From the NCBI GenBank assembly GCA_030390025.1, contig JASTWF010000033.1:3908001-3972000 (forward strand): 64,000 nt of DNA, read 5' to 3'. Position 1 is the first letter of the stretch, and each line of letters starts with the position of its first letter. A program made the translations under genes and the position numbers. This stretch comes from Squalus acanthias. Lineage: Eukaryota. The notes below the pieces were generated by a model. It was not told where the DNA came from, did no database searches, and saw nothing but the letters and a program-made list of their open reading frames with translations. Positions 1 to 61,525 of this stretch are shown here, piece after piece.

Positions 1-374
1 CGTCGGTAATGTCCCTCCGGCTGTGTGGTACTCCTCCTGCCCTCTCCCTCTGACAGTGCAGCCCTCTCACTTATGGCCCCTCAAAAAGTGCAGCATTCCC
101 TCTGTACTGTCCACTCACACAGTGCAGCGCTCCGTCAGTACTGCCACTTCAAAAATGCAGTGATCCCTCATTACTGCCCCTCCGAAAGTGCGGTATTGCC
201 TCAGTAACGTCCATCCCACAGTGTGGCGATCCCTTAGTACTTTCCTCCAACTGTGCGGCGCTTCACCCGTACTGTTCCATTCTGACAGTGCAGCAGTCCA
301 TCAGTACGGCCCCACCGACAGTGCCGCGCTCCCTCAGTCCTGCCCCTCTGACATTTCAGCACTTCCTTAGTACT

Positions 375-472
375 CACAGTAACTCTACCTGAGAAAGGGG
401 CGACAGCTCCGAAAGCTTGTAATTTTAAATAAATCTGTTGGACTATAACCTGGTGTTGTGCGACTTCTCATT
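375..472 (+). mobile_element. Short Penelope-like element (PLE) terminal fragment inserted in the satellite
   Basis: Contains CCGAAAGCTTGT..AAATAAATCTGTTGGACTATAACCTGGTGTTGTGCGAC, as in the PLE ends at 53.4, 57.7 and 58.1-58.7 kb. Flanked by the direct repeat TTAGTACT (367-374, 473-480). Confidence 0.85.
386..421 (+). ncRNA. Degenerate minimal hammerhead ribozyme motif (G8A core variant)
   Basis: tac-CTGAGAA-a-ggggc/gaca/gctcc-GAAA-gc-tt-gta. The core deviates from CUGANGA. Confidence 0.55.
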
Positions 473-15352: not shown

Positions 15353-16560
15353 CTATGTGGGAACATGACGAGGTAATGAGTAAACAGTTGAAAGGCCTTC
15401 TATCTTAAATGAGTAAGGGAGATTCAGACACCATACAGGAAGTGGAGAATATGCTAATAACCACACAAGACGAAACAGAAATATACAGACAAATTCAGGA
15501 TCACTTTAACAATGCGACAACAGGGATTAGTAAAACAGAACAAGACATCTCACGAGCTATGGTCTGCTCAATTTACGGGAGTTATATGATGGTTCAATTA
15601 ATGGCAGGATTAGGTGAAAGAGAACGCAACCGAGTCTCCTCATTTGTCAACGATTCCATGATTAGGAAATGGATTCATTATGAATAGGACTATAATGTAA
15701 AAGTGGCAAGAAAGCAGGGATTAGTATATTTGGTGAGAGGAAATGGGGATTATGACAGTCAGCCAATCGTTCCTGTCATACTGTGGCTGCCGCAGTTGCA
15801 CAAGATGAGGCAGTGGGAAGTATTGAAGGTGGAATCGATAGGGATGCTGGAAGGAAGGTTCCATAATTCTTTTCATCACGACAGCCCCACCCCCACCCCC
15901 CTCACCCTGATAAAGCGAAATGATACCTGGGACAGTCCAAATATGGGGTGCTGCACCGAATATAGTGGGGTTTACATGTGCAGGTGCGATGTCAGGACAC
16001 CCAATCGGCCCACCTGTGGATTCAAACTAGGCTCAGACTCACCCCTCTCTAGTATGAATGTGCAGAGGTGGTGATTAGACAGGATAAATTATGTTTATCT
16101 ACAAATTGGCATCTATGCGTCACCACTCGAGCTAAATCATACCAGCATGTGCAAAATGAATGTCCAATAAATCATCTACCTTTTGTTTTAAACCCACACA
16201 AATGGTCCGAATAGGCAGCCACACCCTCCTACCGGTAATAATTCACAATATTACCGAACTAAGAGTGAGCTTTTCAGTGCAAGCAGAAGCCCTGAGAGCA
16301 GTGGATAACTTTGGACTTCCAATTCCACCCCATCCCGAAAACTTAAAGCCATTATAGAGAGAACTTCAACTTCACAAATGCAATTTGTCCAGGTGCAACA
16401 AAGCAATGATAGAACCCAGAGAGTGATTATGACCCTAGGGAGTTGCAGTTGGTGGGACAACACCCACTGTACAGAATGATTTTTTATGGCAATCTAACCC
16501 TTCCAAATAATATTAACGTTTATCGTATTGTTATGAAATGCTATCTGCGGAGTGTAATCC
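15353..16560 (+). pseudogene. env: 5'-truncated retroviral env pseudogene (post-cleavage subunit), duplicate of the 59.4-60.6 kb copy
   Basis: MSKGDSDTIQEVENML..., GCCTEYSGVYMCRCD..TCGF, STFCFKPTQMVRIG, SCSWWDN followed by a hydrophobic segment. Stops and frameshifts present. Confidence 0.8.
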
Positions 16561-17320
16561 ATAGAGTTTCTCGGCGTGCTATGACTGTTCATAACTTAGA
16601 CTTACAGCAATGCTTGTCAGAAAGTAGATTGAGGTAGTTGAGGAATCAATGTTTAATACATTTCATCCTCGAGGTGGGGACTTGCACAAAATGCTGGTAT
16701 TCGAGTGTCTTAGTAGATGGGAATCATATATGTATAAATTCAAGAGTAGCCATTGACCAACTAATCTTACCCATGATTCTCTGTGAGTATGGAAAGGCTA
16801 AAGACTGTTCGAATGTAGCCACAAGGCAGTTAAAAGCAGTTTTAACTAAGCTCAGATAATAAACAGCCACATGATTCGAGTGAAGGTTAAATTGTTAAAT
16901 AAAATATTGTAGTACTAATAACTGATTATAATCCGAAGTAGGAATTAGAGTTCGATTAACAAAACTAATTGCAAAGATATTTGAAAGATAATTATTATAA
17001 AAGATGAAAAATGTACGAGATCTTGTGAGTAAAAGTATCCACTTGGCAGCTCAAAGTGAGATATTCTGGACATCGTCAAGGTAAGCGAGGCAGCTCTGAA
17101 TTGGCCGACTTGGTATTGGTATTCTACCTTCCCTGCTTGTACCAGGGAAGGTAGAATAAGAGAGATAAGATAAGTTCCAATAAAGTGAAGAAACGTATAA
17201 ATAAGCTAACCATGAACAGGGTAGATCAGGGAAAGTTACTGAGCCAGGAGCAGTCATGATGGTACATTTAGTCTGAGTGAAAGATAGTATATTGAACATC
17301 AGAACCTATGAAAAAAGGGG
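16561..17320 (+). mobile_element. Proviral region 3' of env, ending in a polypurine-tract-like GAAAAAAGGGG (17310-17320)
   Basis: Mirror of 57969-59370 minus the PLE insertion; AT-rich; purine run at its end. Confidence 0.65.
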
Positions 17321-18100
17321 TATACAGAGTAAAGCTCCATGTACAATGTCCCTTCAAACACTTCCAGGGCTGGTACAGCACGGGTTAGATACAGAGTAAA
17401 GCTCCCGGTACAATGTCCCTTCAAACAGTCCCAGGGCAGGTACAGCTCCGGTTAGATACAGAGTACAGCTCTCTCTACTGTGTCCCTTCAAACACTCCCA
17501 GGGTAGATACATCACTGTTTAGATACAGAGTATTGCACCCTGTACAATGTCCCATCAAACACTCCCAGGGCAGGTACAGCAAGGATTATATACAGAGTAA
17601 AGCTCCCTCTACACTGTCCCATCAATACCTCCCAGGGCAGGTACAGCACGGATTGATACAGTGTAAAGCTCCCTCTACACTGTCCAATCAATAACTCCCA
17701 GGGCAGTTTCAGGGGGTTAGACGCAACGTAAACTCTCTCTACACTGTTACATTAACAGTCCCAGGACTGCAGCAGCACGGGCAAGATACAGAGGAAAGTT
17801 CCCTATAAACTTTGCCATCAAACACTCCCAGGGCAGGGACAGCACGAGTTAGATACAAAGTAAAGCTCGCTCTACACTGGCTCAAAACACACTCCCAGAG
17901 CAGTTAGATCACGGGTTAGATCCATAGTAAAGCTCCCTCTACAATGTCACTTCAAACACTCGCAGTGCCGGTACAACACGGGATAGATACAGAGTAATGC
18001 TCCCTCTACCCTGGTCATGAAACACTCCCAGGGCGGTTATAGCACGGGTTAGATACAGTGTAAACCTGCCTCTACACTATCTCTTCAAACACGCCCAGGG
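17321..18100 (+). repeat. 67-bp tandem array (GGTTAGATACAGAGTAAAGCTCCCTCTACACTGTCCCATCAAACACTCCCAGGGCAGGTACAGCACG)
   Basis: About 11-12 imperfect units. The 67-bp period was measured at 20706/20773 and 56874/56941. Confidence 0.95.
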
Positions 18101-18104
18101 TTTT

Positions 18105-20390
18105 TATAACAGTACGTAGAGGAGCCAACTATGGAACAGGCTATCCAAGATTGGGTATTGTGCAATGAGAAGGGGTTAATTAATAAGCTTACTGTGCGGG
18201 GTCCTTTAGGGAACAGTGATCATAAAATAATATAATTCTTCATTAAGATGGAAAGTGAAGTAGTCCAATCCGAAACTAGGGTCCTAAATCTAAACAAAGG
18301 AATCTACGAAGGTATGAGGAGTGAGTTGGCTATGATAGATTGGGGAGCTTCATTTAAAGGCATGACGGTGGGTAGGCAATGGTTAACATTTAATGAATGA
18401 ATGCATGAATTGCAATAGTTATATATCCATGTCTGGTGCAAAACTCAAAAGGAAAACCGTCCCAAACATGGCCAACAAAAGAAATTAATGGTATTATTAG
18501 ATCCGATCATATAAAGTAGCAAGCCTGTGGATTGGGAGCTGTTTAGAATGCAGCAAGAACGGACCAAGAGATTGATTAAGAGGAGAAAAATAGAGTATGA
18601 GAGTAAACTTGCAAGGAACATAAAAGCAGATTGTATACCTTCTCCAAGTATGTAAACAGAAAAAGATTGGTGAACACAAATTTAGGTCACTTACAGTCAG
18701 AAACGGGAGAATTTATAATGGGGAACAAGGAAATGGCTGAGCAATTAAACAAATACTTTGGTTCTGTCTTCACGGAAGAGGACGCAAATAACTTTCCAGT
18801 AATGCTAGGGAACCAAGGGTTTAGTGAGAAGGAGGAAGTAAATCAAATTAGTACTAGAAAAAAAATAGTGCTCGAGAAATTAATGGCACTGAAAGCAGAT
18901 AAATCCCCAGGGCCTGATCATTTACATCCCAGAGTACTAAAAGAGGTAGCGATGGAAATAATGGATGTCATCTTCCAAAATTCTTTAGATTATGGAACGG
19001 TTCCTGCAGATTAGAAGTTGGCAAATGTAACCCCAATATTCAAAAAAGGAGGGAGAGAGATTACAGGGCACTGCAGATCGGTTAACCTAACATCAGTAGT
19101 AGACAAAGTTAACATGGATTTATGAAAGGGAATTCGTGTTTGACAAGCCTACTGGAGTTTTTTGAGGATGTAACTGCTAGAATAGATAAGGGAGAGCCAG
19201 TGGATGTGGTGTATTTGGATTTTTAGAAGGCCTTTTATAAAGTCCCACATAAGAGGTTAGTGTGCAAAATTAAAGCAAATGGGATTGGGGGTAATATACT
19301 GGCATGGATTGAAAATTGGTTAACAGACAGGAAACAGAGAGCAGGAATAAATGGATCTTTTTCAGGGTGGCAGGTAGTGAATAGTGGGGTACCGCAGGGA
19401 TCAGTGCTTGGGCCCCAGCTATTCTCAATATATATCAATTATTTGGATGAGAGAACCAAATACAATATTTCCAAGTTTGCTGATGACGTGAAACTAGGTG
19501 GATTGTGAGTTGTGAGGAGGAAGCAAAGAGGCTTCAAGGCGATTTAGACAAGTTGAGTGAGTGGGCAAATACATGGCAGATGCAGTTTAACGTGGATAAA
19601 CTTGAAGTTATCCAATTCAGTAGGAAAAACAGAAAGGCAGAGTAAAATTTAAATGGTGATAGTTTGGAAAATGTTCATGTAAAAGGGACCCGGGTGTCTT
19701 TGTACACCAGTCACTGAAAGCAAACATGCAGGTGCAGCAAGCAGTTAGGAAAGCAAGTGGTATATTGGCCTTCATTGCAAGAGGATTTGAGTACAGGAGC
19801 AAGGATGTCTTACTACAATTATACAGGGCCTTGCTGAGACCACACCTGGAGTACTGTGTGCAGTTTTGGGCTCCTTACCTAAGAGAGGATATACTTGCCA
19901 TAGCGGGAGTGCAGCGAAGGTTCACCAGACTGATTCCTGGGATGGCAGGACTGTCGTATGAGGACAGATTGGATCGACTAGGCACAAGAGTTTAGAAGAA
20001 TCAGAAGGGATCTCATTGAAACGTAAACAATTCTGACAAGGCGGGGCAGACTGGAAACAGGGAGGATGTTTTCCCTGGCTGTGGCGTCTATAACGAGGGG
20101 TCACAGTCTCAGGATACGGGATAGGACATTTAGGACTGAGATGAGGAGAAATTTCTTCACTCAGAGGATGGTGAACCTGTGGAATTCTCTACCACAGAAG
20201 GCTGTGGAGGCCAAGTCACTGAATATATTTAAGAATGAGATAGATAGATTTCTAGACACAAAAGGGTATGGGGAGAGAGTGCGAATATGGTATTGAGATA
20301 CAGGACCAGCCATGATCATATTGAATGGCGGAGCAGGCTCAAAGGGCCGAATGGCCTATTGCTGCTCGTATTTTTCTATGTTTCGATGTT
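18105..20390 (+). mobile_element. 5'-truncated CR1-clade LINE (ORF2 RT remnant plus 3' UTR)
   Basis: [52 protein letters not shown]; 3' hairpin GGCCGAATGGCCT and a TTTCTATG-like tail. Multiple stops. Confidence 0.95.
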
Positions 20391-20864
20391 TCTACACTGT
20401 CCCATCAAAAACTCCCATGGCAGCTACAGCACGGGGTAGATACAGAGTAAAGCTCAGTCTACACTGTCCTTTCGAACACTCCCAGGGCAGTTGCAACATG
20501 GGTCAGATAGCGAGTAAAGCTTACACTACACAGTCCCATTAAGCACTCCCAGGGCAGGTAAAGCACGGGTTAGGTACAGAGTAAAGCTCCCTCCACACTC
20601 TCCCTACAAATACTCCCAGGGCAGGTGCAGCACGTGTTAGATAGGGTTAAAGCTCCCTCTATATTCTCCCCATCAAACACTCCCAGGGCATGTACAGCAC
20701 GGGTTAGATACAGAGTAAAGCTCCTTCTATACTGTCCCATCAAACACTCCCAGGGTAGGTACAGCACGGGTTAGATTCAGAGTAAAGCTCCCTCCACACT
20801 GTCCCTCAAACACTACCAGGGCAGGTGCAGCACGGGTTAAATAGAGAGTAAAGCTCCCTCCACA
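20391..20864 (+). repeat. 67-bp tandem array (about 7 units)
   Basis: Same unit as 17321-18100. Confidence 0.95.
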
Positions 20865-22033
20865 ACTTTTAGATGAAGTAACAGAGAGGATTGCTGAAGG
20901 TAATGCATTGGATGTTGTCTACATGGATTTTAGGAAGGCGGTTGACAATATATCACTTAGAAGGCTGGTAAACCAAAGTGAGACTCATGGAATAGGCAGC
21001 TTGGATAAGGAATTGGCTTAAGGACAGGAAAGAGCGAGTTGTGGTAAATGGCTGTTTTTCAGACTGGATGATGCTAGACAGTGGTGTTCCTCAAGAGTCA
21101 GTGCAGTGACCACTGCTTTTTTGATATATATAAATGACCTGGATATTGGAATACAGAGTAGATTTCTACATTTGCGAATGACACCAAACTAGTGGTTGTG
21201 GCAAAGAGTGATGATGATATCAATCGACTGCAACAGGACATAGAACGGCTAGCAGAATGGGCAGACAAGTGGCAGATGGAATTTAATACAGAGAAGAGTG
21301 AGTTAATGCATTTTGGCAGAAGGGACAGTGAGAGACAATATACACTTAATGAAACAGTTTTAAAGAGTGCGCAGGGACAGAGGGACCTGGGAGCTAATGT
21401 GCATAGGTCCCTGAAGGTGGCGGGACATCTTGAGAGAGTGGTTAGCAAAGCATATGGGATCTTGGACTACAAAATAGAGGTATTGAGTGCGTTATGTTGA
21501 ACCTTTATAAAGTGCTGGTTAGGCCACAACTGGAACATTGCATCCAGTTCTGGTCACCACACTTTAGGAAGTATGTGAAGGTCCATGAGAGGTTGCAGAT
21601 GAGATTTACCAGAATGGTGGAAGCGGAAACACTCAATGTTTTCAAGGGGAGACTAGATAGACACTTGAGGGAAATAAACGTGCAGGGCTACGGGGATAGA
21701 GCGGGGGAATGTGATTGGCTGGATTGCTCACAGAGATCCGGCACCGTCTTGATGGGCAGAAAGGCCTCCTTCTGTGCCTCTATGACTACACTGTCCAGTC
21801 AAACACTACCAGGGCACGTACAGCATAGAATACAAGAGCAGGGGGTGTGGGGGGTGGGGGTTATACTTCAACTGTACAAAACACTAGTTTAGCCTCAGCT
21901 AGAGTACTGCGTGCACCACATTACACGAAAGATGTGATTGCACCAGAGAGGGTACAGATGAGATGTACAAGGATATTGCCGGGAGTAGAGAATCTTAGCT
22001 ATGTGGAAAGACTGGACAGGCTGGGTTTCTTTT
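20865..22033 (+). mobile_element. Two degenerate CR1 fragments (20865-21786, internally deleted; about 21826-22033) separated by a 67-bp-repeat remnant
   Basis: LQQDIERLAEWADKWQMEFN, LYKVLVRPQLEHCIQFWSP; mirror of 51700-52876. Confidence 0.9.
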
Positions 22034-22322
22034 CACAGAATCCCCACAGTGCAGATAGAGGCCATTTCGGCCCATGGAGCCTGCACCGACACATATCCCA
22101 GTATTTAATACCCCTAACACTAAGGGTCAATTTTTATCACAGCAAACTCAACCTAACACGCACATCTTTGGACTGTGGGAGGAAACCGGAGCACCCGGAG
22201 GAAACCCACGCAGACACGGGGAGAATGTGCAAACTCCACACAGACAGTCACCCGAGGCCGCATTCGAACCCGTGTCCCTGGCGCTGGGAAGCAACAGTGC
22301 TAACCACTATGCCACCGTATCC
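22034..22322 (-). mobile_element. tRNA-derived V-SINE (HE1-like)
   Basis: Minus strand: A-box TGGCATAGTGG, B-box GGTTCGAATGC, V-domain GTGTGGAGTTTGCACATTCTCCCCGTGTCTGCGTGGGTTTCCTCCGGGTGCTCCGGTTTCCTCCCACAGTCCAAAGA, and a CR1-type 3' end GGGCCGAAATGGCCTC. Confidence 0.92.
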
Positions 22323-22344
22323 CGCTACACTGTCCCATCAAATA

Positions 22345-25300
22345 TATTGGCGTTGTTAGTGAAGGATGAAGTCAGAGCTATAGTGAGAAAGGATATTGGC
22401 TCAGGAAACAAAAGATGTGGAATCAGTCTGAGTGGAGCTAAGAAGCAGCAAGGGGTGGAAAACATTGGTTGGAGTTGTTTATAGGCATCCAAACAGTAGT
22501 GCTATTGTAGAGGATGGCATCAAACATGAAATTAGAGATGCATGTAACAATGGAACTACAGTAATCATTGGTGACATTAATTTACATCTAGACTGGCTAA
22601 ACCAAGTTAGCGATAATACAGTGGAGGATGATTTCCTGGAGTGTGTACGAGATGGTTTTTCAGACCAGTACGTGGTGGAGCAAATTGGGTACAGGCTATC
22701 CTAGATTGGGAATTGTACAATGAGAAGGAATTAATTAATAAACGTTTTGTGCGGGGTCCTTTAGGGAAGAGTGAACAGAACATGATAGAAATCTTCATTA
22801 AGATGGAAAGTGAAGAAGTCCAATTCGAAACTAGGTTCCTAAATCTAAACAAATCAAAGCTACGAAGGTATGAGGAGTACGTTGGCTATGATAGATTGGG
22901 GAGCTTCGTTAAAAGCCATATCGTTGGGTAGGCAATGGCTAACATTTAAGGAACGAACGCATGAATTGCAACAGTTATACATTAATCTCTGGCGCAAAAA
23001 CACAAAAGGAAAAGCGGCCCAACCGTGGCTACCAAAATAAATTAAGGGTAGTATTAGCTCCAAAGAGGAGTCATATAAAGTTGCCAGAAAAAGTAGCAAG
23101 CCTGAGGATTGGGAACAGCTTACGGTTCAGCAAAAAAGGATGAAAAGATTGATTAAGAGGAGAAACATAGTGTTTGAGAATAAACTTGCAAAGAACATAA
23201 AAGCGGAATGTAAAAGCTTCTAAAAGTATGTAAAAATAAAACGAGTAGTGAAGGCAATTGTGGGTCCCTTACATTCAGAAACGGGAGAATTTGTAATGGG
23301 GAACAAGGAAAAGGCTGAGCAGTTAAATACATACTTTGGTTCTGTCTTCATGGAAGAGGACACAAATAAATTCCCACGGTTCTAGAGAGAAGGAGGAATT
23401 AAAGGAAATTAGTATTAGTAAATAAATAGTGCTGGAGTAATTAATGGGACTGAAAGCTAATAAATCTCCAGGGCCTGATAATCTGCATCACAGAGTAATA
23501 AAAGAGGTAGCCTTGGAAATATTGAATGCATTGTTTGTCATCTTCAAAAATTCTATAGATTATGGAACAGTTCCTACAGATTGGAGGGTGGCAAATGTAA
23601 CACCACTATTTAAAAAAAGGAGGAAGAGAGATAACAGGGAACTACAGACCAGTTAGTCTAACATCATTGGTAGAGAAAATGCTGGTTTCTATTATACAGG
23701 ATGCGATAACAGGTCAAGGGTGGGACCAACAAGCCCAGGCAACCCTGAATGTCAAGTGATATACGAGAATGGATTAGGAAAAAAAGGGAGGCTTTTGGCA
23801 GATACAAAGGACTAAAAACAGTGGAAGCTCTAGAGGAGTACAGAAAGTAGGGGGGTACTTAAAAAGTAAATTAGGAGAGCGAAGAGGGGGCATGAAATAA
23901 CACTGGCGGGCAAAATAAAGGAACATACCAAGGTGTTTTATAAGTATATTAAGGGCAAGCGTATAACCAGTGAAAGAGCAGGGCCCATTAGGGACCAAAG
24001 TGGCAATCTGTGTGTAGAGCCAGAAGATGTAGGTGAGGTTTTAAATTAATATTTTGCATATGTGTTCAATATGGAGCAGCACGATGTAGGCATAGAAATT
24101 AGGCAGGGGGATTGTGATATACTTGAATAAATTAGTATTGAGAGGGAGGAGGTATTAGCGGTTTTAGCAGGCTAAAAAGTGGATAAATCCCAGCCCCAGA
24201 CGAGATGTATCCAAGGCTCCTGTGTGAGGCAAGGGAGGAGATTGCAGGGGCTCTGACACAAATTTTCAGAACATCTCTGGCCACTGGGGAGGTGCCAGAG
24301 GACTGGAGAATAGCTAACGTAGTACCATTATTCAAGAAGGGTAGTAGGGATAAACCAGGGAATTACAGGCCATTGAGCATAACATCAGTGGAAGGGAAAT
24401 TATTGGAAAAAATTCTGAGGGACAGAAATAGTCTCCACTTGGCGAGGCAAGGATTAATCAAGGATAGTCAGCAAGGCTTTGTCAGGGGGAGAGCATGTCT
24501 GACTAATTTGATTGAATTTTTCACTGGGGTGACTAGGTGTGTGGATGAGGGTAATGTAGTTGATGTAGTCTACATGGACTACAGTAAGGCTTTTGACAAA
24601 GTCCCGCATGGGAGACTGTTCAAGACGGTAAAAGCCCATGGGATCCAGGGCAATTTGGCACATTGCATACAAAATTGGCATAGTGGCAGGAGGCAAAGGG
24701 TGATGTTCGAAGGTTGTTTTTGTGACTGAAAGCCTGTGTCCAGTGGTGTACCTCAGGGATCGGTGCTGGACCCTTTGCTGTTTTAGTTTACATTAATCAT
24801 TTAGATATGAATGTAGGAGGTATGATCAGTAAGTTTCCAGATGACACGAAAATTGGTGGGGTGGTAAATAGCGAGCAGGGAAGCCTCAGGCTACAGGACG
24901 ATATAGACGGTATGGTCAGATGGGCAGAACAGTGGCAAATGGAATTTCACCATGAAAAGTGTGAGGTGATGCATTTTGGGACGACTAACAAGGCAAGGGA
25001 ATACACAATGAACGGTAGGACCCTAGGAAGGACAAAGGATCAGATGGACGTTGGTGTGCATGTACTTAGATTCATGAAGGCAGCAGGACAGGTAGGTAAG
25101 GTGGTTAAAACGCATATGGTATACGTGCCTTCATTAGCCGAGGCATAGATTATAAGAGCAGGGAGGTTATGATGGAGCTGTACAAAACGCTAGCTAGGCC
25201 ACAGCTGGAATACTGTGTGCAGTTCTGGTCGCCACACTACAGGAAGGATGTGATTGCATTGGAGAGGGTGCAGAGGAGATTCACCAGGATGTTACCTGGG

Positions 25301-51285: not shown

Positions 51286-52876
51286 CATAGAATCATAGAA
51301 TCATATAAATTTACAGCACGGAAGGAATCCATTTCTGCCCATCGTGTCCGTGCCGAGCAACAAAGAGCTATCCAGCCTAATCCCACGTCCCAGCTCTTGC
51401 TCCGTAGCCCTGCAGGTTACTGCATCCCAAGTGTACATCCAAATACTTTTTAAATGTGGTTAAGATTTCTGCCTCTACCACCCTTTCATGCAGTGAGTTC
51501 CAGACCCCCACAACGCTTTGGGTGAAGACATTTCCCCTCAAAACCCCTTTAAACCTTCCAATTGCTTTAAATCTATGCCCCATGGTATTTGACCCATTCG
51601 CTAAGGGAAATAGGTCCTTTCTATCCACTTTATCTAGGCCACTCATAATTTTGTACATCTCAATATAGTCTCCGCTCAGCCACCTTTGTTCCAAGGAAAA
51701 CAAACCCAGCCTGTCCAGTCTTTCCACATAGCTAAGATTCTCTTTACCCGGCAATATCCTTGTACATCTCCTCTGTACCCTCTCTGGTGCAATCACATCT
51801 TTCGTGTAATGTGGTGACCAGAACTGCACGCAGTACTCTAGCTGAGGCCTAACTAGTGTTTTATACAGTTGAAGTATAACCCCCAACCCCCTGCTCTTGT
51901 ATTCTCTGCTGTACGTGCCCTGATAGTGTTTGACTGGACAGTGTAGTCATAGAGGCACAGAAGGAGGCCTTTCTGCCCATCAAGACGGTGCCGGATCTTT
52001 GTGAGCAATCCAGCCAATCCCATTCCCCCGCTCTATCCCCGTAGCCCAGCACGTTTATTTCCCTCAATTGCCTATCTAGTCTCCCCTTGAAAACATTGAG
52101 TGTTTCCGCTTCCACCATTCTGGTAAATCTCCTCTGCAACCTCTCATGGACCTTCACATACTTCCTAAAGTGTGGTGACCAGAATTGGACGCAATTTTCC
52201 AGTTGTGGCCTAACCAGCACTTTATAAAGGTTCAACATAACTTGTCTACTTTTGTACTCAATACCTCTATTTTGAAGTCCAAGATCCCATATGCTTTGCT
52301 AACCACTCTCTCAAGATGTCCCGCCACCTTCAGTGACCTATGCACATTAACTCCCAGGTCCCTCTGTCCCTGCGCACTCTTTAAAACTGTGTCATTAAGT
52401 GTATATTGCCTCTCCCTGTTCCTTCTGCCAAAATGCATTAACTCACTCTTCTCTGTAGTAAATTCCATCTGCCACTTGTCTGCCCATTCTGCTAGCCGTT
52501 CTATGTCCTGTTGCAGTCGACTGATATCATCATCACTGTTTGCCAAACCCCTAGTTTGGTGTCATTCGCAAATGTAGTAATCTACGCTGTATTCCAATAA
52601 CAAGGTCATTTATATATATCAAAAAAGCAGTGGCCCCAGCGCTGACCCTTGAGGAACACCACTGTCTAGCATCATACAGTCTGAAAAACAGTCATTTACC
52701 ACAACTCGCTCTTTCCTGTCCTTAAGCCAATTCCTTATCCAAGCTGCCTATTCCATGAGTCTCACTTTTGTTTACCAGCCTTCTAAGTGGTATATTGTCA
52801 ACCGCCTTCCTAAAATCCATGTAGACAACATCCATTGCATTCCCTTCAGCAATCCTCTCTGTTACTTCATCTAAAA
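51286..52876 (-). mobile_element. Two CR1 fragments (51286-about 51908 with intact 3' tail; about 51945-52876)
   Basis: ORF track 51377-51886, 51861-52238 and 52232-52546; ATAGAATCATAGAATCAT tail. Confidence 0.92.
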
Positions 52877-53411
52877 GTTGTAGAGGGAGCTTTACTCTCT
52901 ATTTAACCCTTGCTGCACCTGCCCTGGTAGTGTTAGAAGGGACAGTGTGGAGGGAGTTTTACACTGTACCTAACCCCGTGCTGTGCCTGCCCTGGGAGTG
53001 TTGGATGGGGAGAATGTAGAGGGAGCTTTACCCCCTATCTAACAGGCGCTGTACCTTCCCTGGAAGTGTTTGTAGGGAGAGTGTGGAGGGAGCTTTATTC
53101 TGTATCTAACTCGTGCTGTAACTGCCCTGGGACTGTTTGATGGGACAGTGTCGATGCAGCTTTACTCTGTACCTAACCCGTGCTTTACCTGCCCTTGGAG
53201 TGCTTAATGGGACTGTGTAGAGTAAGCTTTACTCGCTATCTGACCCATGTTGCAACCGCCCTGGGAGTGTTCGAAAGGACAGTGTCGACTGAGCTTTACT
53301 CTGTATCTACCCCGTGCTGTACCTGTCCTGGGAGTGTTTGATGGGACAGTGTAGAGGGAGCTTTACTCTGTATCTACCTCGTGCTGTACCTGCCCTGGGA
53401 GTATTTGATGG

Positions 53412-53556
53412 TCATGATGCGGAGATGCCGGTGTTGGACTGGGGTGGACAAAATTGAGAGGTCTCACAACACCAGGTTATAGTCCAACAGTTTTATTTGA
53501 AATCACAAGCTTTCGGAGCTATCGATTGCTCCTTCCTCAGGTGAAGTAAATTAGAT
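53412..53556 (-). mobile_element. 145-bp Penelope-like 3'-terminal insertion with 12-bp TSD
   Basis: AGTATTTGATGG at 53400-53411 and 53557-53568; terminal ...GTCCACCCCAGTCCAACACCGGCATCTCCGCATCATGA. Confidence 0.9.
53503..53544 (-). ncRNA. Minimal type I hammerhead ribozyme motif, intact core
   Basis: tcac-CTGAGGA-a-ggagc/aatcgata/gctcc-GAAA-gc-tt-gtga. Confidence 0.78.
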
Positions 53557-53580
53557 AGTATTTGATGGGACAGTGTAGAA

Positions 53581-55955
53581 ACATGGCAACATAGAAAAAA
53601 AGGAGCAGCAATAGGCCATTCGGCCCTTTGAGCCTGATCAGCCATTCAATATGATCATGGCTGATCTTCTATCTCAATACCATATTCCCGCTCTCTCCCC
53701 ATACCCCTTCAAGCCTTTTCTGTCTAGAAATCTACCTATCTTCATCTTAAATATATTCAGTGAATTGGCCGCAACAGCCTTCTGTGTTAAAGAATTCCAC
53801 AGGTTCTCCACCCTCTGAGTGAAGAAGTTCCTCCTCATCTCAGTCCTAAATGTCCTATCCCGTATCCTGAGACTGTGACCCCTCGTTCTAGACGCCACAG
53901 CCAGGGGAAACATCCTCCCTGCTTCCAGTTTGTCTAGCCTTGTCAGAATTTTTTACGTTTCAATGAGATCCCTTCTCATTCCTCTAAACTCTAGTGAATA
54001 CAGACCTAGTCGACCCAATCTCTCCTCATACGACAGTCCTGCCATCCCAGGAATCAGTCTGGTGAACCTTCGCTGCACTCCCGCTATGGCAAGTACATCC
54101 TCTCTTAGGTAAGGAGCCCAAAACAACACACAGTACTCCAGTTGTGGTCTCACCAAGGCCCTGTATAATTGTAGTAAGACATCCTTGCGCCTGTACTCAA
54201 ATCCTCCTGCAATGAAGGCCAATATACCACTTGCTTTCCTAACTGCTTGCTGCACCTGCATGTTTGCTTTCAGTGACTGGTGTACAAAGACACCAGGTCC
54301 CTTTTACATGAACATTTACCAAACTGTCACCATTTAAATTATACTCTGCCTTTCTGTTTTTCCTACTGAATTGGATAACTTCAAGTTTATCCACGTTAAA
54401 CTGCATCTACCATGTATTTGCCCACTCACTCAACTTGTCTATGTCGCCATGAAGCCTCTTTGCATCCTCCTCACAACTCACAATCCCACCTAGTTTCGCG
54501 TCATCAGCAAACTTAGAAATATTACATTTGGTTCCCTCATCCAAATAATTGAGATATATTGTGAATAGCTGGGGCCCAAGCACTGATCCCTGCGGTACCC
54601 CACTAGTCACCGCCTGCCACCCCGAAAAAGACCCATTTATTCCTACTCTCTGTTTCCTGTCTGTTAACCAATTTTCAATCCATGCCAGTATATTACCCCC
54701 AATCCCATGTGCTTTCATTTTGCACACTAACCTCTTATGTGGGACTTTATCAAAGGCCTTCTAAAAATCCAAATACACCACATCCACTGGTTCTCCCTTA
54801 TCTATTCCACCAGTTACATCCTCAAAAAACTCCAGTAGGCTTGTCAAACAAGAATTCCCTTTCATAAATCCATGTTAACTTTGTCTAATCCCGTTGATAT
54901 TGTCCAAGTGTCCTGTTGTCACATCCTTTATAATAGAAACCAGCATTTTCCCTACTACTGATGTTAGGTTAACCGATCTGCAGTGCCCTGTTATCTCTCT
55001 CCCTCCTTTTTTGAATATTGGGGTTTCATTTGCCAACCTCTAATCTGCAGGAACCGTTCCTTAATCTAAAGAATTTTGGAAGATGACAACCAATGCATCC
55101 ATTATTTCCATGGCTACCTCTTTTAGTACTCTGGGATGTAAATGATCAGGCCCTGGGGATTTATCAGCTTTCAGTCCCATTAATTTCTCCAGCACTATTT
55201 TTTTTCTAGTACTAATTTGATTTAATTCCTCCTTCTCACTAGACCCTTGGTTCCCTAGGATTACTGGAAAGTTATTTGCGTCCTCTTCCGTGAAGACAGA
55301 ACCAAAGTATTAGTTTAATTGCCCAGCCGTTTCCTTGTTCCCCATTATAAATTCTCCCGTTTCTGACTGTAAGTGACCTAAATTTGTGTTCACCAATCTT
55401 TTTCTTTTTACATACTTGGAGAAGTTTTACAATCTGCTTTTATGTTCCTTGCAAGTTTACTCTCATACTCTATTTTTCTCCTCTTAATCAATCTCTTGGT
55501 CCCTTCTTGCTGAATTCTAAACAGCTCCCAATCCACAGGCTTGCTACTTTATATGATTGGATCTAATAATATCCTTAATTTCTTTTGTTGGCCATGTTTG
55601 GGCCGGTTTTCCTTTTGTGTTTTGCACCAGACATGGATATATAACTGTTGCAATTCATGCGTTCATTCATTAAATGTTAACCATTGCCTACCCACCGTCA
55701 TGCCTTTTAATGAATCTCCCCAATCTATCATAGCCAACTCACTCCTCATACCTTCGTAGCTTCCTTTGTTTAGATTTAGGACCGTAGTTTCGGATTGGAC
55801 TACTTCACTTTCCATCTTAATGAAGAATTATATTATTTTATGATCACTGTTCCCTAAAGGACCCCGCACAGCAAGCTTATTAATTAAACCCTTCTCATTG
55901 CACAATACCCAATATTGGATAGCCTGTTCCCTAGTTGGCTCCTCAACGTACTGTT
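53581..55955 (-). mobile_element. 5'-truncated CR1 (mirror of 18105-20390)
   Basis: ORF track 53674-53913, 53953-54261 and 54407-54727. Confidence 0.95.
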
Positions 55956-57310
55956 ATAAAAACCCTGGGCGTGTTTGAAGGGATAGTGTAGAGGCAGGTT
56001 TACACTGTATCTAACCCATGCTATAACCGCCCTGGGAGTGTTTGATGGCCAGGGTAGTGGGAGCATTACTCTGTATCTATCCCGTGTTGTACCAGCAATG
56101 CGAGTGTTTGAAGTGACATTGCAGAGGGAGCTTTACTATGTATCTAACCCGTGATCTAACTGCTCTGGGAGTGTTTTTTGAGCCAGTGTAGAGCGAGCTT
56201 TACTTTGTATCTAACCCGTGCTGTCCCTGCCCTGGGAGTGTTTGATGGCGAGGTTTATAGGGAGCTTTACTATTTATCTTGCCCGTGCTGCTGCAGTCCT
56301 GGGACTGTTAATGGAACAGTGTAGAGAGAGTTTACGTTGCGTCCAACCCCCTGAACCTGCCCCGGGAATTTTTGATTGGACAGTGTAGATGGAGCTTTAC
56401 ACTGTATCAATCCGTGCTGTACCTGCCCTGGGAGTTATTGATCGGTCAGTGTAGAGGGAGCTTTACACTGTATCTAAAACGTGCTGTACCTGCCCTGGGA
56501 GGTATTGATGGGACAGTGTAGAGGGAGCTTTACTCTGTATCTAAACCGTGCTGTACCGGCCATAGGAGTGTTTGATGGGACAGTGTAGAGGAAGCTTTAC
56601 TCTGTATCTAACCCGTGCTGTACCTGCCCTGCGAGTGTTTGATGGGACTGTGTAGAGGGAGATTTACTATTTATCTAACCCGTGCTCTACCTGCCCTGGG
56701 AGTGATTGATGGTACAGTGTCGAGGGAGCTTTACACTGTATCTAAACCATGCTGTACCTTTCCTGGGAGTTTTTGCTGGGACAATGCCGAAGGGGCTTTA
56801 CTCTCTATCTAACCCGTTCTGTACCTGCCCTGGGCGTTTTCGAAGGGACAGTGTAGAGGGAGCTTTACTCTTTATCTAACCCGTGCGGTACCTGCCCTGG
56901 GAGTGTTTGATGGGACAGTGTAGAGAGAGCTTTACTCTGTATCTAACCCGTGCGGTACCTGCCCTGGGAGTGTTTGATGGAACAGTGTAGAGGGAGCTTT
57001 ACTCTGTATCTAAACAGTGATGTACCTGCCCTGGGAGTGTTTGATGGAACAGTGTAGAGGGAGCTTTACTCTGTATCTAAACAGTGATGTACCTGCCCTG
57101 GGAGTGTTTGAAGGGACATTTTACAGGGAGCAATACTCTGTATCTAAACAGTGATGTATCTACCCTGGGAGTGTTTGAAGGGACACAGTAGAGTGAGCTG
57201 TACTCTGTATCTAACCGGAGCTGTACCTGCCCTGGGAGGGTTTGAAGTGACATTGTACAGGGAGCTTTACTCTGTATCTAACCCGTGCTGTACCAGCCCT
57301 GGGACTGTTT

Positions 57311-57789
57311 ATGTCACGATACATGACGTGATCCGGACTCGAGTCGTCGTTGGCTTGTTCACAGATGTGATTCCCAGTAAAAAAGTAAACATTTTCCCAG
57401 TAAAAAAGTAAAAATTTTAAAGCTTTTCGTTTTACATACAGGCAGCTTTTGACACGTTAGACCCCCTGCGACTCCACCTCGTTGTCTCAGTTGTATCTTG
57501 CTATGTCTTTGATGTGGTACCTTCCTGGCTGACCTGATTAACTTTATCACACCTCAGCAGATAGTCAGGATGATTTAATTTAGTTGTCTGCAATTGTAAG
57601 GTACACATGCATTGTTCTCTATCTATATATGCTTTGGCGATTCTGTATCGTTTTACTTCACCCGACGAAGGAGTAGTTAGTAAGCTCCGAAAGCTTGTGA
57701 TTTCAGATAAAACTGTTGGACTATAACCTGGTGTTGTGCGACCTCTCAATTTTGTCCACCCGAGTCCAACACTGGCATCTCCGCATCAT
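57311..57789 (+). mobile_element. 5'-truncated Penelope-like element (last ORF codons plus 3' region)
   Basis: Begins (F)MSRYMT*, matching the GFMSRYRT* ending at 58424. Direct repeat GACTGTTT at 57303-57310 and 57790-57797. Confidence 0.88.
57658..57700 (+). ncRNA. Hammerhead ribozyme motif, U4C core variant (probably inactive)
   Basis: tcac-CCGACGA-a-ggagt...gctcc-GAAA-gc-tt-gtga. Confidence 0.6.
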
Positions 57790-58164
57790 GACTGTTTGAA
57801 GTGACATTGCACCGGGAGCTTTACTCTGTACCTAACTCGTGCTGTACCTGCCCTGGGAGTGTTTGATGGGACAGTGTAGAGGGAGCTTTACTCTGTATCT
57901 AACCCGTGCTGTACCAGCCCTGGAAGTGTTTGAAGGGAAATTGTACAGGGAGCTTTACTGTGTATCTACCCCTTTTTTCATAGGTTCTGATGGTCAAAAT
58001 ACTATCTTTCACTCAGACTAAATGTAGCATCATGACTGCTCCTGGCTCAGTAAGTTTCCCTGATCTACCCTGTTCATGATGTGGAGATGCCGGCGTTGGA
58101 CTGGGGTGGACAAAAATGAGGAGTCGCACAACACCAGGTTATAGTCCAACAGATTTATTTAATT

Positions 58165-58203
58165 TTACAAGCTTTCGAAGCAGTTCGCTCCTTCGTCAGG
58201 TAA
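58165..58203 (-). ncRNA. Minimal type I hammerhead ribozyme motif, intact core
   Basis: ttac-CTGACGA-a-ggagcg/aac/tgcttc-GAAA-gc-tt-gtaa. Confidence 0.78.
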
Positions 58204-58423
58204 GTTAGCAATGAGAGAATCTCCCAGAATTCACAATTTAAACACAGACAATATCTATTCACATTATTCCCTACAACAAAGAGCACAGCCAAGACAATGA
58301 GATGTGTCCCAGGGGGTCCAACGTGTCAAACCACCTGCTGGCTGCATATCCTGTCAATTTGTGTTCTTGTGTTAGGCTTTTTAAAAAAAAAAAACACCTG
58401 GGAAGACCGGCCATGATGTCAAG

Positions 58424-58597
58424 TCACGTTCTGTATCGTGACATGAACCCGATATCGCGATTGAGGCCATCCTCATGAGTGCGGAACTTGGCTATCAGTT
58501 TCTGCTCTATGATTTTGCGCTGTCGTGTATCTCGAAGGCCGCCTTGGAGAACGCTTACCCGCAGATCCGAGGCTGAATGCCCCTGGCTGCTGAAGTG
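58424..58597 (-). pseudogene. C-terminal fragment of Penelope GIY-YIG endonuclease
   Basis: Manual translation: HFSSQGHSASDLRVSVLQGGLRDTRQRKIIEQKLIAKFRTHEDGLNRDIGFMSRYRT* (HF..GH, E..I..F.T...GLN.D pattern). Confidence 0.9.
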
Positions 58598-58627
58598 TGA
58601 ATTCTGGGAGATTCTCTCATTGCTAAC

Positions 58628-58666
58628 TTAACTGACGAAGGAGCGAACTGCTTCGAAAGCTTGTAA
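58628..58666 (+). ncRNA. Hammerhead ribozyme motif in the inverted PLE end (intact core, stem I closing mismatch)
   Basis: ttaa-CTGACGA-a-ggagcg/aac/tgcttc-GAAA-gc-tt-gtaa. Confidence 0.68.
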
Positions 58667-59369
58667 AATTAAATAAATCTGTTGGACTATAACCTGGTGT
58701 TGTGCGACTCCTCATTTTTACCCTGTTCATGGTTAGCTTATTTAAACGTTTCTTCACTTTATTGGAACTTATCTTATCTCTCTTATTCTACCTTCCCTGG
58801 TACAAGCAGTACACGGCCTAATACCAAGTGTGCCAATTCAGAGCTGCCTCGCTTGCCTTGACGGTGTCCAGAATATCTCACTTTGAGCTGCCAAGTGGAT
58901 ACTTTTACTCACAAGATCTCGTACATTTTTCATCTTTTACAATAATTATCTTTCAAATATCTTTGCAATTAGTTTTGTTAATCGTAATCTAATTCCTACT
59001 TCGCATTATAATCAGTTATTAGTATTTAAAATGTTATTTAACAATTTAACCTTCACTCGCAGCCTATGGCTGTTTGTTATCTGAGCTTAGTTAAAACTGC
59101 TGTTTAACTGCCCTGTGGCTGCATTCGAACAGTCTTTAGCCTTTCCATACTCACAGAGAATGATGGGTAAGATTAGTTGGTCAATGGCTACACTTGAATT
59201 TCTACATATATGATTCCCATCCACGAAGGCACTCTAATATCAGCATTTTGTGCAAGTCCCCACCTCGAGGATGAAATGTTTTAAACATTGATTCCTCAAC
59301 TACCTCAATCTACTTTCTGACAAGCATTGCTGTAAGTCTACGTTATGAACAGTCATAGCACGCCTAGAA

Positions 59370-61491
59370 ACTCTATGGATTACACTCCGCAGATAGCATA
59401 TCATAATCAATACGATAAACGTTAATATAATTTGGATGGGTTAGATTGCCATAAAAAATCATTCTGTACAGTGGGTGTTGTCCCACCAACTGCAACTCCC
59501 TCGGGTCATAATCACTCTCTGGGTTCTATCATTGCTTTGTTGCACCTGGACCAATTGTATTTGTGAAGTTGAAGTTCTCGCTATAATGGCTTTAAGATTT
59601 CGGGATAGGGGTGGAATTGGATGTCCAAAGTTAACCACTGCTCTCAGGGCTTCTGCTTGCATTGAAAAGCTCACTCTTAGTTCGGTAATATTGTGAATTA
59701 TTACCGGTAGGAGGGTGTGGCTGCCTATTCGGACCATTTGTGTGGGTTTAAAACAAAAGGTAGGTAATCTATTGTACATTCATCCTGCCATGCTGGTATG
59801 ATAAAGCTCGAGTGGTGAAGCATAGATGCCCATTTGTAGATAAACGTAATTTATCCGGGCTAATCCCCACCTCTGCACATTCATACTACAGAGGGGTGAG
59901 TCTTAGCCTAGTTTGAATCCACAGGCGAGCCGATAGGGTGTCCTGACATCGCACCTGCACATGTAAACCCCACTATATTCGGTGCAGCACCCCATATTTG
60001 GACTGTCCCAGGTATCATTTCGCTTTATCAGTGTGAGGGTGGGGGGCGGTGATGAAAAGAATTATGGAACCTTCCTTCCAGCATGCCTATCGATTCCACT
60101 TTAAATACTTCGCACGGCCTCATCTTGTGCAACTGCGGCAGCCACAGTACGACAGGAACGATTGGCTGACTGTCATAATCCCCATTTCCTCTCACCAAAT
60201 ATACTAATCCCTGTTTTCTTGCCTCTTTTACATTATAGTCCTAATCATAATGAATCAATTTCCTAATCAGGGAATCGTTGACAAATGAGGAGACTCGGTT
60301 GCGTTCTCTTTCACCTAATCCTGCCATTAATTGATCCATCATATAACTCCCGTAAATTGACCAGACCATAGCTCGTGAGATGTCTTGTTCTGTTTTACTA
60401 ATCCCTTTTGTCGCATTGTTAAAATGATCCTCAATTTGTCTGTATATGTCTGTTTAGTCTTGTGTGCTTATTAGCATATTCTCTAATTCCTGTATGGTGT
60501 CTGAATCTCCCTTATTCATGTTAGATAGAAAGCCTTTCAACTGTCTCCTCATTACCTCGTCATGTTCCCACATAGTTTCTATATCCACCCTGTACGGCGC
60601 ACCGGTTCCCGCAGTGGCTCCTAACCATTCCCCCCGTGCCTCTTTTTATTCTAAATTGGCTGTTGTTATTGCCTGAAATGTTGACCATTACGTAAGTCTG
60701 TCCTACAGCCCAGGAACCCCATCTGTCTTGTGCATAGTTTTTATATAAAAAGTCCTTTATAATTTTCCTCACCTAGTGGTCATAATATCCACGGTGTCCT
60801 TTAGGACATAAATTTCTGGGAAAGGGAATACCTGTAAAATTAAAAATTACCGGAATAATTTAGTACCGAATCCCCCTATACAATTGTTTATAGCTACGGG
60901 TGAGAAACAATCCATTTGATGGTCCTTTTGTTAATAATGGGCATCCCTTATTCTTATGCTTGTCGCTTTTCCTTTGTAACCTTATCTCCTCCGTTCTTCC
61001 CTTGATCTCAGCCGTTGCATTTGTCGTTGCCTTGGTCTCCCTCTTGGCTCTGCATTAAAGCATTCTACTATTCCCCTATGTCTTTTACCTATTTTGGGAC
61101 AATTTAGTTTATCCAAGCGCTGTCCCAGATATGGGATCCCCAAACTATTTGGTGTAATCTTAACCATTTCCTTGAACCCAAATCCTTGACCTACAAGCTT
61201 TCCTTTTCCTATATGATAATTTAGGGTTACTCGAACATCGTCTTTAGTACATAGACCCGCTATTTTAACCCCTTCGCCCTCTCTGGCCCGTAATACAAAG
61301 CCCCATCGGTCGTATTTCGCGTTCATAAAAATCACAGTACACAGTCATATCTCATGCTGAGCCGTTCCCCATTCTAACGACGGCATATCGTCGGTTGGCA
61401 TCTTGACTCCATTCTGGATGATGATAATGTTTGAAGTCTGCTCCATACCAACAAGCATCAGAAGTCCCACTATGCGTCTGAGTCCTGTCAT
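59370..61491 (-). pseudogene. env: Retroviral env pseudogene
   Basis: ATG 61491 MTGLRRIVGLLMLVGM (signal-like); furin-type RIKR at 60652-60641; Gly/Ala-rich GTG-EWLGATAGTGA; helical stretch; Cys cluster; WWD then hydrophobic segment. Many stops and frameshifts. Confidence 0.82.
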
Positions 61492-61501
61492 TTTGGCAAA
61501 C

Positions 61502-61517
61502 CTGGAGGAGTAAAGAG
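61502..61517 (-). promoter_or_regulatory. Candidate env splice acceptor
   Basis: CTCTTTACTCCTCCAG|G between the pol stop (61526) and the env ATG (61491). Confidence 0.55.
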
Positions 61518-61525
61518 TGCAGCAT

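Follow-up and report, generated by a model that had tools for sequence, protein, structure and literature searches.

How does a shark locus whose two arms face each other across a scaffold gap compare with described duplications of similar form? The large sex-chromosome palindromes of primates and mice likewise have arms of more than 10 kb, inverted as they are in the present assembly. In those palindromes, as the accessible parts of the literature describe them, arm identity is held above 99% by conversion and the arms carry gene families, whereas here identity is 95%, many indels are unshared, no host gene was found and the spacer is unsequenced. False heterotype duplications at scaffold gaps also place two similar copies on one scaffold with a gap between them, but the divergence and structural differences here are far above ordinary heterozygosity (bioRxiv 2021.04.09.438957, in the portion available). 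Default 500-N Hi-C joins and GA-rich dropouts (PMC9292758, PMC9861903, PMC9186530, in excerpt) are similar in that exactly 500 N separate two GA-rich contig ends; they differ in that the tracts here are degenerate. Segmental duplications near the satellite-rich ends of shark chromosomes, or on the small chromosomes, lie in DNA with the same abundance of simple tandem repeats and LINE/SINE debris, with tandem repeats more abundant and substitution faster at chromosome ends and on short chromosomes (bioRxiv 2022.10.17.512540; PMC13100897). The available parts of those papers give regional trends and not this duplicated unit.

We find that the arms are probably (at a probability of about 0.72) old paralogues, each derived from the same 25-30 kb of dead mobile DNA, in a repeat-rich part of an elasmobranch genome. 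The duplicated segment contains the 3' part of a provirus, arrays of a 67-bp satellite, CR1 LINEs nested in one another, a 103-bp repeat and a GA tract (Table 1), and it has no evident function. Pfam matched 8 of the 11 ORFs tested, all with mobile-element domains, a count in which short exons could be missed, and Rfam at gathering score returned 0 matches over 15000-64000. Two env-position fragments had no Pfam match and one env-position fragment no Atlas match; "env" is a label by position only.

Table 1. Features of the two arms, their flanks and the gap, in coordinates of the window (the whole 64-kb stretch of DNA analysed)
Feature	Position	Strand	Evidence and remarks
33-bp satellite array	475..15354	+	TRF; divergence from its consensus ~19%; flanks the left arm on the outside
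Left-arm breakpoint	15353..15355	+	satellite fused to middle of env-position region; 2-bp microhomology
Module A/B left: 3' part of a 5'-truncated provirus, with env-position region and LTR-like tail	15355..17316	+	BLAST, alignment
67-bp satellite array, left 1	17322..18100	+	TRF
CR1 fragment C+D	18101..20390	+	lacks, at 19100, 64 internal bp that the right arm has; TAG in LDF*KA common to both arms
67-bp satellite array, left 2	20391..20864	+	TRF
CR1 fragment E	20865..22034	+	cut at 22034
tRNA-headed SINE and satellite scrap	22035..22347	-	in the place of 6.75 kb of the right arm
Nested CR1s F1, F2, G, H	22348..28935	+	
Unique tail and 103-bp repeat	28936..29687	+	5 unit starts left, 2 right
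Left GA tract, ~90% purine	29688..33992	+	contig end falls inside; CR1-tail/SINE insert at 32702-33160
Scaffold gap, 500 N, unsized	33993..34492	.	GA tract on left, TC tract on right
Right GA tract (TC on +), 6.6 kb	34493..41092	-	internal duplications of ~1.1 kb; contig end falls inside
Right tail, F1 and chimeric F2/H CR1	41093..44943	-	F-like to H-like switch near 42230; 3.2 kb lost
Right-only block	44944..51695	-	Pfam, alignments
67-bp array inside right-only block	50487-51285		
Right copies of E, 67-bp array 2 and C+D (uninterrupted)	51696..55962	-	BLAST
Right 67-bp array 1	55963..57972	-	TRF
Right-only 640-bp insertion	58079..58718	.	127-bp inverted ends; 13-bp target-site duplication
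Module A right	58719..60573	-	BLAST, alignment
Broken provirus, right-only continuation into pol	60574..64000	-	integrase core (rve) and RNase H domains by Pfam

Inverted homology between the arms

Reverse-complement homology extends over six modules, pairing 15355-25751 with 60573-41543. The outermost BLAST block joins 15355-17223 to 60573-58719 at 93.7%, five more colinear blocks follow at 92.9-96.2%, and identity by module ranges from 90 to 96.5%. Pooled over the six-module alignment, substitutions occupy 430 of 8810 columns (4.9%; identity 95.1%), with 22 gaps; across 73 alignment windows of 120 columns the median divergence is 4.2%, and 10 of the 73 reach 8% or more. The arms measure 18.6 kb (18638, left) and 26.1 kb (26081, right), of which 9276 and 9314 bases, respectively, pair 1:1 outside tandem arrays. 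No 1:1 partner exists for 44944-51695 on the right (6752 bp), for 25752-28935 on the left (3184 bp) or for some smaller pieces. At least nine indels separate the arms, two of them with target-site duplications. The outer flanks are non-homologous within the window, where the 33-bp satellite has no right-side counterpart (no 14-mer of its unit lies past 15400 on the + strand or anywhere on the - strand). Despite true inverted homology, the arms are no mirror.

An earlier note had placed the ends of this homology at 15353 and 60575, and BLAST bears these out once the 2-bp junction microhomology is counted in; the arm-specific insertions and deletions that it reported are present as well. Its statement that every module recurs fails for the unpaired stretches, and its divergence of 9%, taken from one 120-nt sample, is unrepresentative of the alignment. 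Both lesions that it listed as common to the arms were located in each: a stop past IHY[E/D] in the env-position region (15685-15687 left, 60243-60241 right) and a TAG in the CR1 motif LDF*KA (19215 left, 54772 right). Because both arms carry the same two stops, those lesions are older than the split. The note's conclusion, that these are old paralogues dead before duplication, is largely right: chimeras are excluded and the two stops predate the split, with long-isolated haplotypes such as X/Y a less probable alternative.

Segmental duplications are customarily recognized at more than 1 kb and more than 90% identity. The arms pass both values, with about 9.3 kb paired per arm in a common order and with shared repeat-repeat junctions, and the F1|F2 insertion junction is common to both.

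Could the arms instead be two long-diverged haplotypes of one locus (e.g., X/Y strata or a non-recombining structural haplotype), joined at a homologous GA break into a false duplication? We regard this as unlikely. Two copies that share a scaffold and have an assembly gap between them, as found here, are the typical signature of false haplotype duplication in the available text of bioRxiv 2021.04.09.438957 and count against paralogues, and the same homologous point ends both contigs. Of 20 sites at which the right arm has a letter found in neither sample, 5 have that letter in the left arm as well; the arms therefore resemble one another more than they resemble most of the family, which paralogy predicts likewise. 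Against haplotypes stand a divergence of 4.9% and the many structural differences; the heterozygosity-level divergence of a false heterotype duplication is not what we find, at 0.049, whereas the epaulette shark, another species, has a nucleotide diversity of 0.002 (PMC10587355, in excerpt). Given the non-homologous outer flanks, allelism would need a further large deletion, possible past the window end at 64000. Ordinary alleles would be unlikely at such divergence.

Independent decay of the two copies

After the split, each copy decayed independently. In the left copy, a cut within the env-position region left the provirus joined to a 33-bp satellite that is older; this copy also lost 64 bp and ~6.75 kb and carries SINE inserts. 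The SINE standing in place of the larger loss is presumably HE1/V-SINE-like, HE1 being listed, in the source portion available, as a V-SINE of sharks and rays. We found no target-site duplications for this SINE, for the GA-tract insert or for the G block, where only 5-6 bp chance matches or GA repeats occur. On the right, E (cut on the left) aligns without interruption to three other CR1 copies, C+D is gapless against an independent CR1, and an endonuclease ORF crosses 44943/44944, where the left is cut. The right-only block holds the endonuclease-encoding 5' part of the F1 CR1, the 3' end of CR1 E, a longer CR1 represented by GDSL-type ORF1 and RT pieces, and unique DNA. Within the left arm, F2 (23717-25762) sits inside another CR1 copy and splits it into the halves F1 (22348-23716) and G (25763-27083); the F2 subfamily has a second member in H (27252-28935). 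An origin of H by tandem duplication of F2 inside the left arm was rejected: F-H divergence, at 10.2%, exceeds F-right divergence, and G continues F1.

On the right, a repeat of very high copy number inserted three times, and 3.2 kb disappeared from between two CR1 copies in direct orientation. The empty site of its 640-bp insertion lies on the left at about 17211-17223; a 479-bp insertion in array 1 (57311-57789) is flanked by an 8-bp direct repeat, a target-site duplication; and a short repeat insertion sits in array 2 near 53412-53550, with no target-site duplication found at 53412. A hammerhead-like motif proposed for the right-arm insertion was unsupported (0 Rfam matches over 57250-58800 at E up to 1). 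In the chimeric CR1, 80 of 107 informative sites ahead of the switch agree with F, as do 21 of 60 beyond it (permutations as extreme, 0/200). The 3.2-kb loss may have been homology-mediated, by single-strand annealing or unequal crossover, and the right arm may be the one nearer to the donor locus.

Such changes bear on whether one sequence was assembled twice, through chimeric fold-back reads or a noisy consensus, an explanation we find hardly credible. Palindromic read chimeras of 7-17 kb are documented (bioRxiv 2021.04.09.438957, in the part available), and the flat substitution spectrum and the lack of an exact public match would suit it. Read error, however, could not have produced a recombinant CR1, reciprocal deletions of several kb or insertions that carry target-site duplications; target-site-duplicated insertions and reciprocal deletions thus exclude read chimeras. 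Only 14 of the gaps are one-base, versus the 430 substitutions, and CpG transitions are enriched in satellite (0.22 versus 0.075).

None of 24 public runs holds half of 910 sampled left-arm words (best, 0.36). For the right arm, 57973-62000 was compared with four runs, of which X2 and X3 are one data set. No exact right-arm match occurs among the contigs listed, 16 pieces of X1 and X2 differing at about 2-12%; right-arm letters absent from contigs are uninformative, since contigs drop rare variants. The public runs thus gave no independent confirmation of arm-private bases, a point against the paralogue reading, and nothing that spans the gap. Many contigs cover env and pol, at depths of 12 to several hundred in two samples (summed over the repeat family), and there is a hint that the provirus is a multi-copy family. 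Run X8, filed under a different organism code, has sequence in 12 of 30 bins, chiefly those of the high-copy insertion, and its uncovered bins prove nothing.

The gap, the GA tracts and the mirrored arrangement

Is the arrangement a palindrome centred on the GA/TC tract, as the earlier note proposed? No symmetry centre is visible, identity drops toward the centre, and the contigs simply stop in the tract; the note was largely right that orientation rests on an unsized join, the 500-N run being present between the GA and TC tracts. A real palindrome would have arisen by fold-back at a break in triplex-prone GA DNA (breakage-fusion-bridge or template switch), with its centre in the gap, and would have escaped conversion and then decayed. 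We consider this very improbable. Module order is mirrored, both arms point to one centre, the scaffolder did join these ends, and AG-rich tracts form triplexes (bioRxiv 2026.07.13.738322, in excerpt). Divergence nevertheless peaks beside the centre (9.6%, in the left tail against the right arm, versus 4.4%; P = 9e-6), where identity is 90%, and similarity between the gap flanks (0.80) does not exceed that of other GA windows (0.77-0.81); lowest identity at the centre and unexceptional flanks thus give no signal of fold-back or conversion. The tracts look colinear only over about the outer 0.8-1 kb (by eye, from shared k-mers), beyond which length and content diverge, and two contigs breaking in the same tract would give an identical picture. 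No excess identity appears at the gap flanks, the centre itself being unsequenced, and none of the 73 alignment windows falls below 1.7% divergence, a scale at which short or old conversion tracts could escape. The arms thus have neither the >99% identity of a maintained palindrome nor, in 120-column windows, its ongoing arm-to-arm conversion. Even if head to head, the arms behave as an unconverted inverted segmental duplication and not as a maintained palindrome.

For two old paralogues, long reads would have failed in the GA tract, leaving both contigs to end at the same homologous point, and a Hi-C scaffolder would then have joined those ends by a default 500 N. In the source portions available, both 3d-dna and SALSA2 insert a Hi-C spacer of 500 N by default and Hi-C pairs give no orientation for short contigs (PMC9292758), while GA-rich DNA is a HiFi dropout sequence (PMC9186530; bioRxiv 2026.07.13.738322). 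The degenerate tracts, whose longest perfect GA run is 38-44 bases, count against the duplicate-pair reading; in human data, assembly breaks were not caused by degenerate satellites (bioRxiv 2026.07.13.738322, same portion). The join may reflect real proximity, as Hi-C reads at 95% identity should mostly map uniquely. We put head-to-head adjacency and orientation, as assembled, at about even odds.

Substitution spectrum and implications

The spectrum between the arms is transversion-rich (Ts/Tv 0.56), a value indistinguishable from random expectation (P = 0.24) and one that sequence error would also give. An excess of adjacent substitutions (27 versus 21.3 expected) was discarded, being reached by 69 of 500 shuffles. 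Our literature search found no published shark Ts/Tv baseline; in the epaulette shark, all four of the four validated de novo mutations are transitions (PMC10587355, in excerpt). That satellite-rich shark chromatin mutates in a transversion-rich manner is possible, at somewhat less than even odds. Distinctly unlikely is the joint reading, in which a true head-to-head 45-kb inverted duplication, begun at a GA tract prone to triplex formation, was neither converted nor deleted over tens of millions of years and kept a paired neutral record of such mutation (Ts/Tv near 0.5, C>A and non-CpG C>T equally common), in contrast to the predominance of transitions that is normal in vertebrates.

Mirrors centred on a 500-N gap in a GA tract call for caution: Hi-C scaffolding makes such structures when contigs are duplicated or haplotypic, and only reads that span the gap would justify calling them palindromes. 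The transversion-rich spectrum, if real and regional, would affect the dating of repeats in shark genomes. The arm pair itself offers a tidy record of decay after duplication, recombinant CR1 included.

Homology between the arms

How closely do the two arms—the copy left of the 500-N gap and the reverse-complement copy right of it—correspond? Self-BLAST with tandem arrays masked recovered colinear reverse-complement blocks at 92.9–96.2% identity, and global alignment counted 430 substitutions and 22 gaps over 8,810 columns (4.9%). At the sequence level the arms qualify as a segmental duplication. They are probably (roughly 0.7) old paralogues, with a putative head-to-head join. A true fold-back palindrome is improbable. 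The arms fall short of sex-chromosome-type palindromes, as characterized in the parts of the literature consulted, on both identity and conversion. The full mirror structure described in the earlier note breaks down: outside arrays, 1:1 pairing covers 9,276 of 18,638 left-arm and 9,314 of 26,081 right-arm bases, with 6,752 bp (right) and 3,184 bp (left) lacking a 1:1 partner. The ~9% divergence proposed there applies to the centre-proximal part only, the overall median of 73 windows being 4.2%; in the tail, a unique segment adjoining the GA tract, 43 of 448 positions are diverged (9.6%) vs. 315 of 7,105 (4.4%) in distal modules (p = 9e-6). Both stops reported as shared were found in both arms.

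The window is nearly all repeats, whose SINE and satellite types point to an elasmobranch source; HE1 is the V-SINE of sharks and rays. The 33-bp satellite in 1–15354 spans 15 kb and is uniformly diverged by 19%; its strand composition is strongly skewed toward C over G (about −0.3), and its CpG observed/expected ratio is 0.65. The right-only block holds a comparatively well-preserved CR1 (45260–48900, minus strand) with a GDSL-type ORF1 (below the Pfam cut-off) and RT pieces. Short non-repeat segments (50141–50486 and 28936–29230/41248–41542) leave room for stray exons; one 119-aa ORF from them had no Pfam match.

Repeat content, paired blocks, and right-only insertions (window coordinates)
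Feature	Left arm	Right arm	Remark
33-bp satellite	475-15354
67-bp satellite arrays			five in window
GA/TC tracts, CR1 LINE fragments, broken provirus			rest of window repeat content
Reverse-complement block	15355-17223	60573-58719
Reverse-complement block	17211-17316	58078-57973
Reverse-complement block	18101-19102	55962-54952
Reverse-complement block	19100-20390	54887-53580
Reverse-complement block	20865-22034	52878-51696
Reverse-complement block	22348-25751	44943-41543
Right-only insertion, very high-copy repeat		58079-58718	repeat at summed public-contig depth 10^5-10^6
Right-only insertion, very high-copy repeat		57311-57789	same repeat
Right-only insertion, very high-copy repeat		53412-53550	same repeat

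Changes on each arm and their age

On the left, the provirus is cut in its env-position region, and a 2-bp microhomology marks its fusion with the 33-bp satellite; on the right it continues into pol. The left copy of CR1 segment C+D has a 64-bp deletion where the right is gapless against an independent copy, and 6.75 kb is lost at a site where a SINE stands, both cut elements being uninterrupted on the right. The truncation with satellite fusion, the deletion, and the loss are derived on the left. The right-only insertions include one of 640 bp, which has a 13-bp target-site duplication and whose site is empty in the left arm, one of 479 bp flanked by an 8-bp direct repeat, and a related short insert near 53412 for which no target-site duplication was found. 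One of the three has 127-bp inverted ends; we take them to resemble Penelope-type termini with a hammerhead-like motif, for which Rfam gave no match. The right arm has also lost 3.2 kb. CR1 segments F1 and G are halves of a single element split by F2 (boundaries 23716/23717 and 25762/25763); the F1|F2 junction survives in both arms, G on the left only. Agreement of the right copy with F is 80 of 107 informative sites before a switch near 42230 and only 21 of 60 after it (0 of 200 permutations as extreme). This switch to H and the loss of G are the expected remnant of recombination between direct copies, from which we infer that the right arm is an F2 × H recombinant that lost the 3.2 kb. This loss and the three insertions are derived on the right.

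Two differences are unpolarised: an insertion within the left GA tract and the number of starts of a 103-bp repeat unit (5 left, 2 right). In all, at least nine structural differences run in both directions, of a kind that read chimeras or consensus error cannot generate, so that a read artefact is extremely improbable. Arm differences (15355–60573) comprise 155 transitions and 275 transversions (Ts/Tv 0.56); ratios are 0.87 and 0.29–1.04 for the 33-bp and 67-bp satellites against their own consensus, and 0.50–0.79 and 1.15–1.41 for same-subfamily and distant CR1 pairs. No genome-wide Ts/Tv baseline was found in the literature searched. Polarised changes number 135 left and 101 right; on both arms, C>A and non-CpG C>T occur in about equal proportion. 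The 33-bp satellite is enriched for CpG transitions (0.22 vs. 0.075), and few indels separate the arms; both points favour biology over long-read error, and this transversion-rich spectrum may be real.

K2P distances between the arms are 0.04–0.06. Whale and zebra sharks, in the portions of the sources consulted, differ by a median dS of 0.061–0.111 (PMC13100897) and split about 50 million years ago or more (bioRxiv 2022.10.17.512540). Given similar rates, the arms would have parted some 20–40 million years ago, a rough cross-species estimate, or more recently if the region mutates fast.

The centre and the scaffold join

The window's single N run is exactly 500 bases (33993–34492), the spacer length that 3d-dna and SALSA2 insert by default (PMC9292758, in part). 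Both contigs stop within their own GA tract and neither gets across; reverse-complement identity of the 500 bases flanking the gap on each side is 0.80 (0.77–0.81 in 11 other GA windows). In the sections consulted, long reads are described as dropping out in GA-rich DNA (PMC9186530; bioRxiv 2026.07.13.738322), degenerate satellites as causing no breaks in a human assembly (bioRxiv 2026.07.13.738322), Hi-C orientation as reliable for long contigs only (PMC9292758), and Hi-C gaps as where optical-map conflicts cluster (PMC9861903); the GA tracts here are degenerate. Given the contig ends, the default spacer, and the limits of Hi-C orientation, the head-to-head layout is the scaffolder's statement. 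It may be correct, since at 95% identity unique mapping is expected for most reads, and inversion is frequent among local duplications. The right GA tract (34493–41092) carries internal higher-order duplications at an offset of ~1102 bp (97% identity over 300 bp) and at 417 and 4900 bp, either recent expansion or assembly duplication; the left tract is almost free of them.

Could the arms be diverged haplotypes? They share the gap signature of false duplications (bioRxiv 2021.04.09.438957, in part), but their divergence is ~25-fold above ordinary heterozygosity, taken from the consulted part of a report on another shark (PMC10587355), which leaves this reading unlikely beside old paralogy.

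Public sequencing runs

None of the 24 public runs listed contains half of the left-arm words (top run, 0.36). Comparing 57973–62000 with contigs of four runs neither confirmed arm-private bases nor separated paralogues from haplotypes. Two samples of organism A covered 30 of 30 bins, with env and pol under many contigs at summed depths mostly of hundreds to low thousands (single contigs down to 12); summed depth is no copy number, and these contigs hint at a multi-copy provirus family. One contig of the X2/X3 data set joins 58729 to 60672, skipping 1942 bases of the env-position region, which suggests that the family includes an internally deleted member. At 59053–59322, summed depth exceeds that in adjacent provirus bins about tenfold, a level expected from solo LTRs or a further embedded repeat.

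For runs X1 and X2, the 16 longest listed pieces diverge from the right arm by about 2–12%. Among the 40 of 218 difference rows listed, 30 are in module A, the env-position part of the provirus. At 20 of these, both samples are mainly unlike the right arm (one uncovered in X1), and the left arm carries the runs' letter at 15 and the right arm's letter at 5; at the remaining 10, only one sample differs. Right-arm differences thus appear mostly private, with a minority common to the left arm, a pattern consistent with duplication some time after provirus insertion. The arm pair is ordinary in kind.
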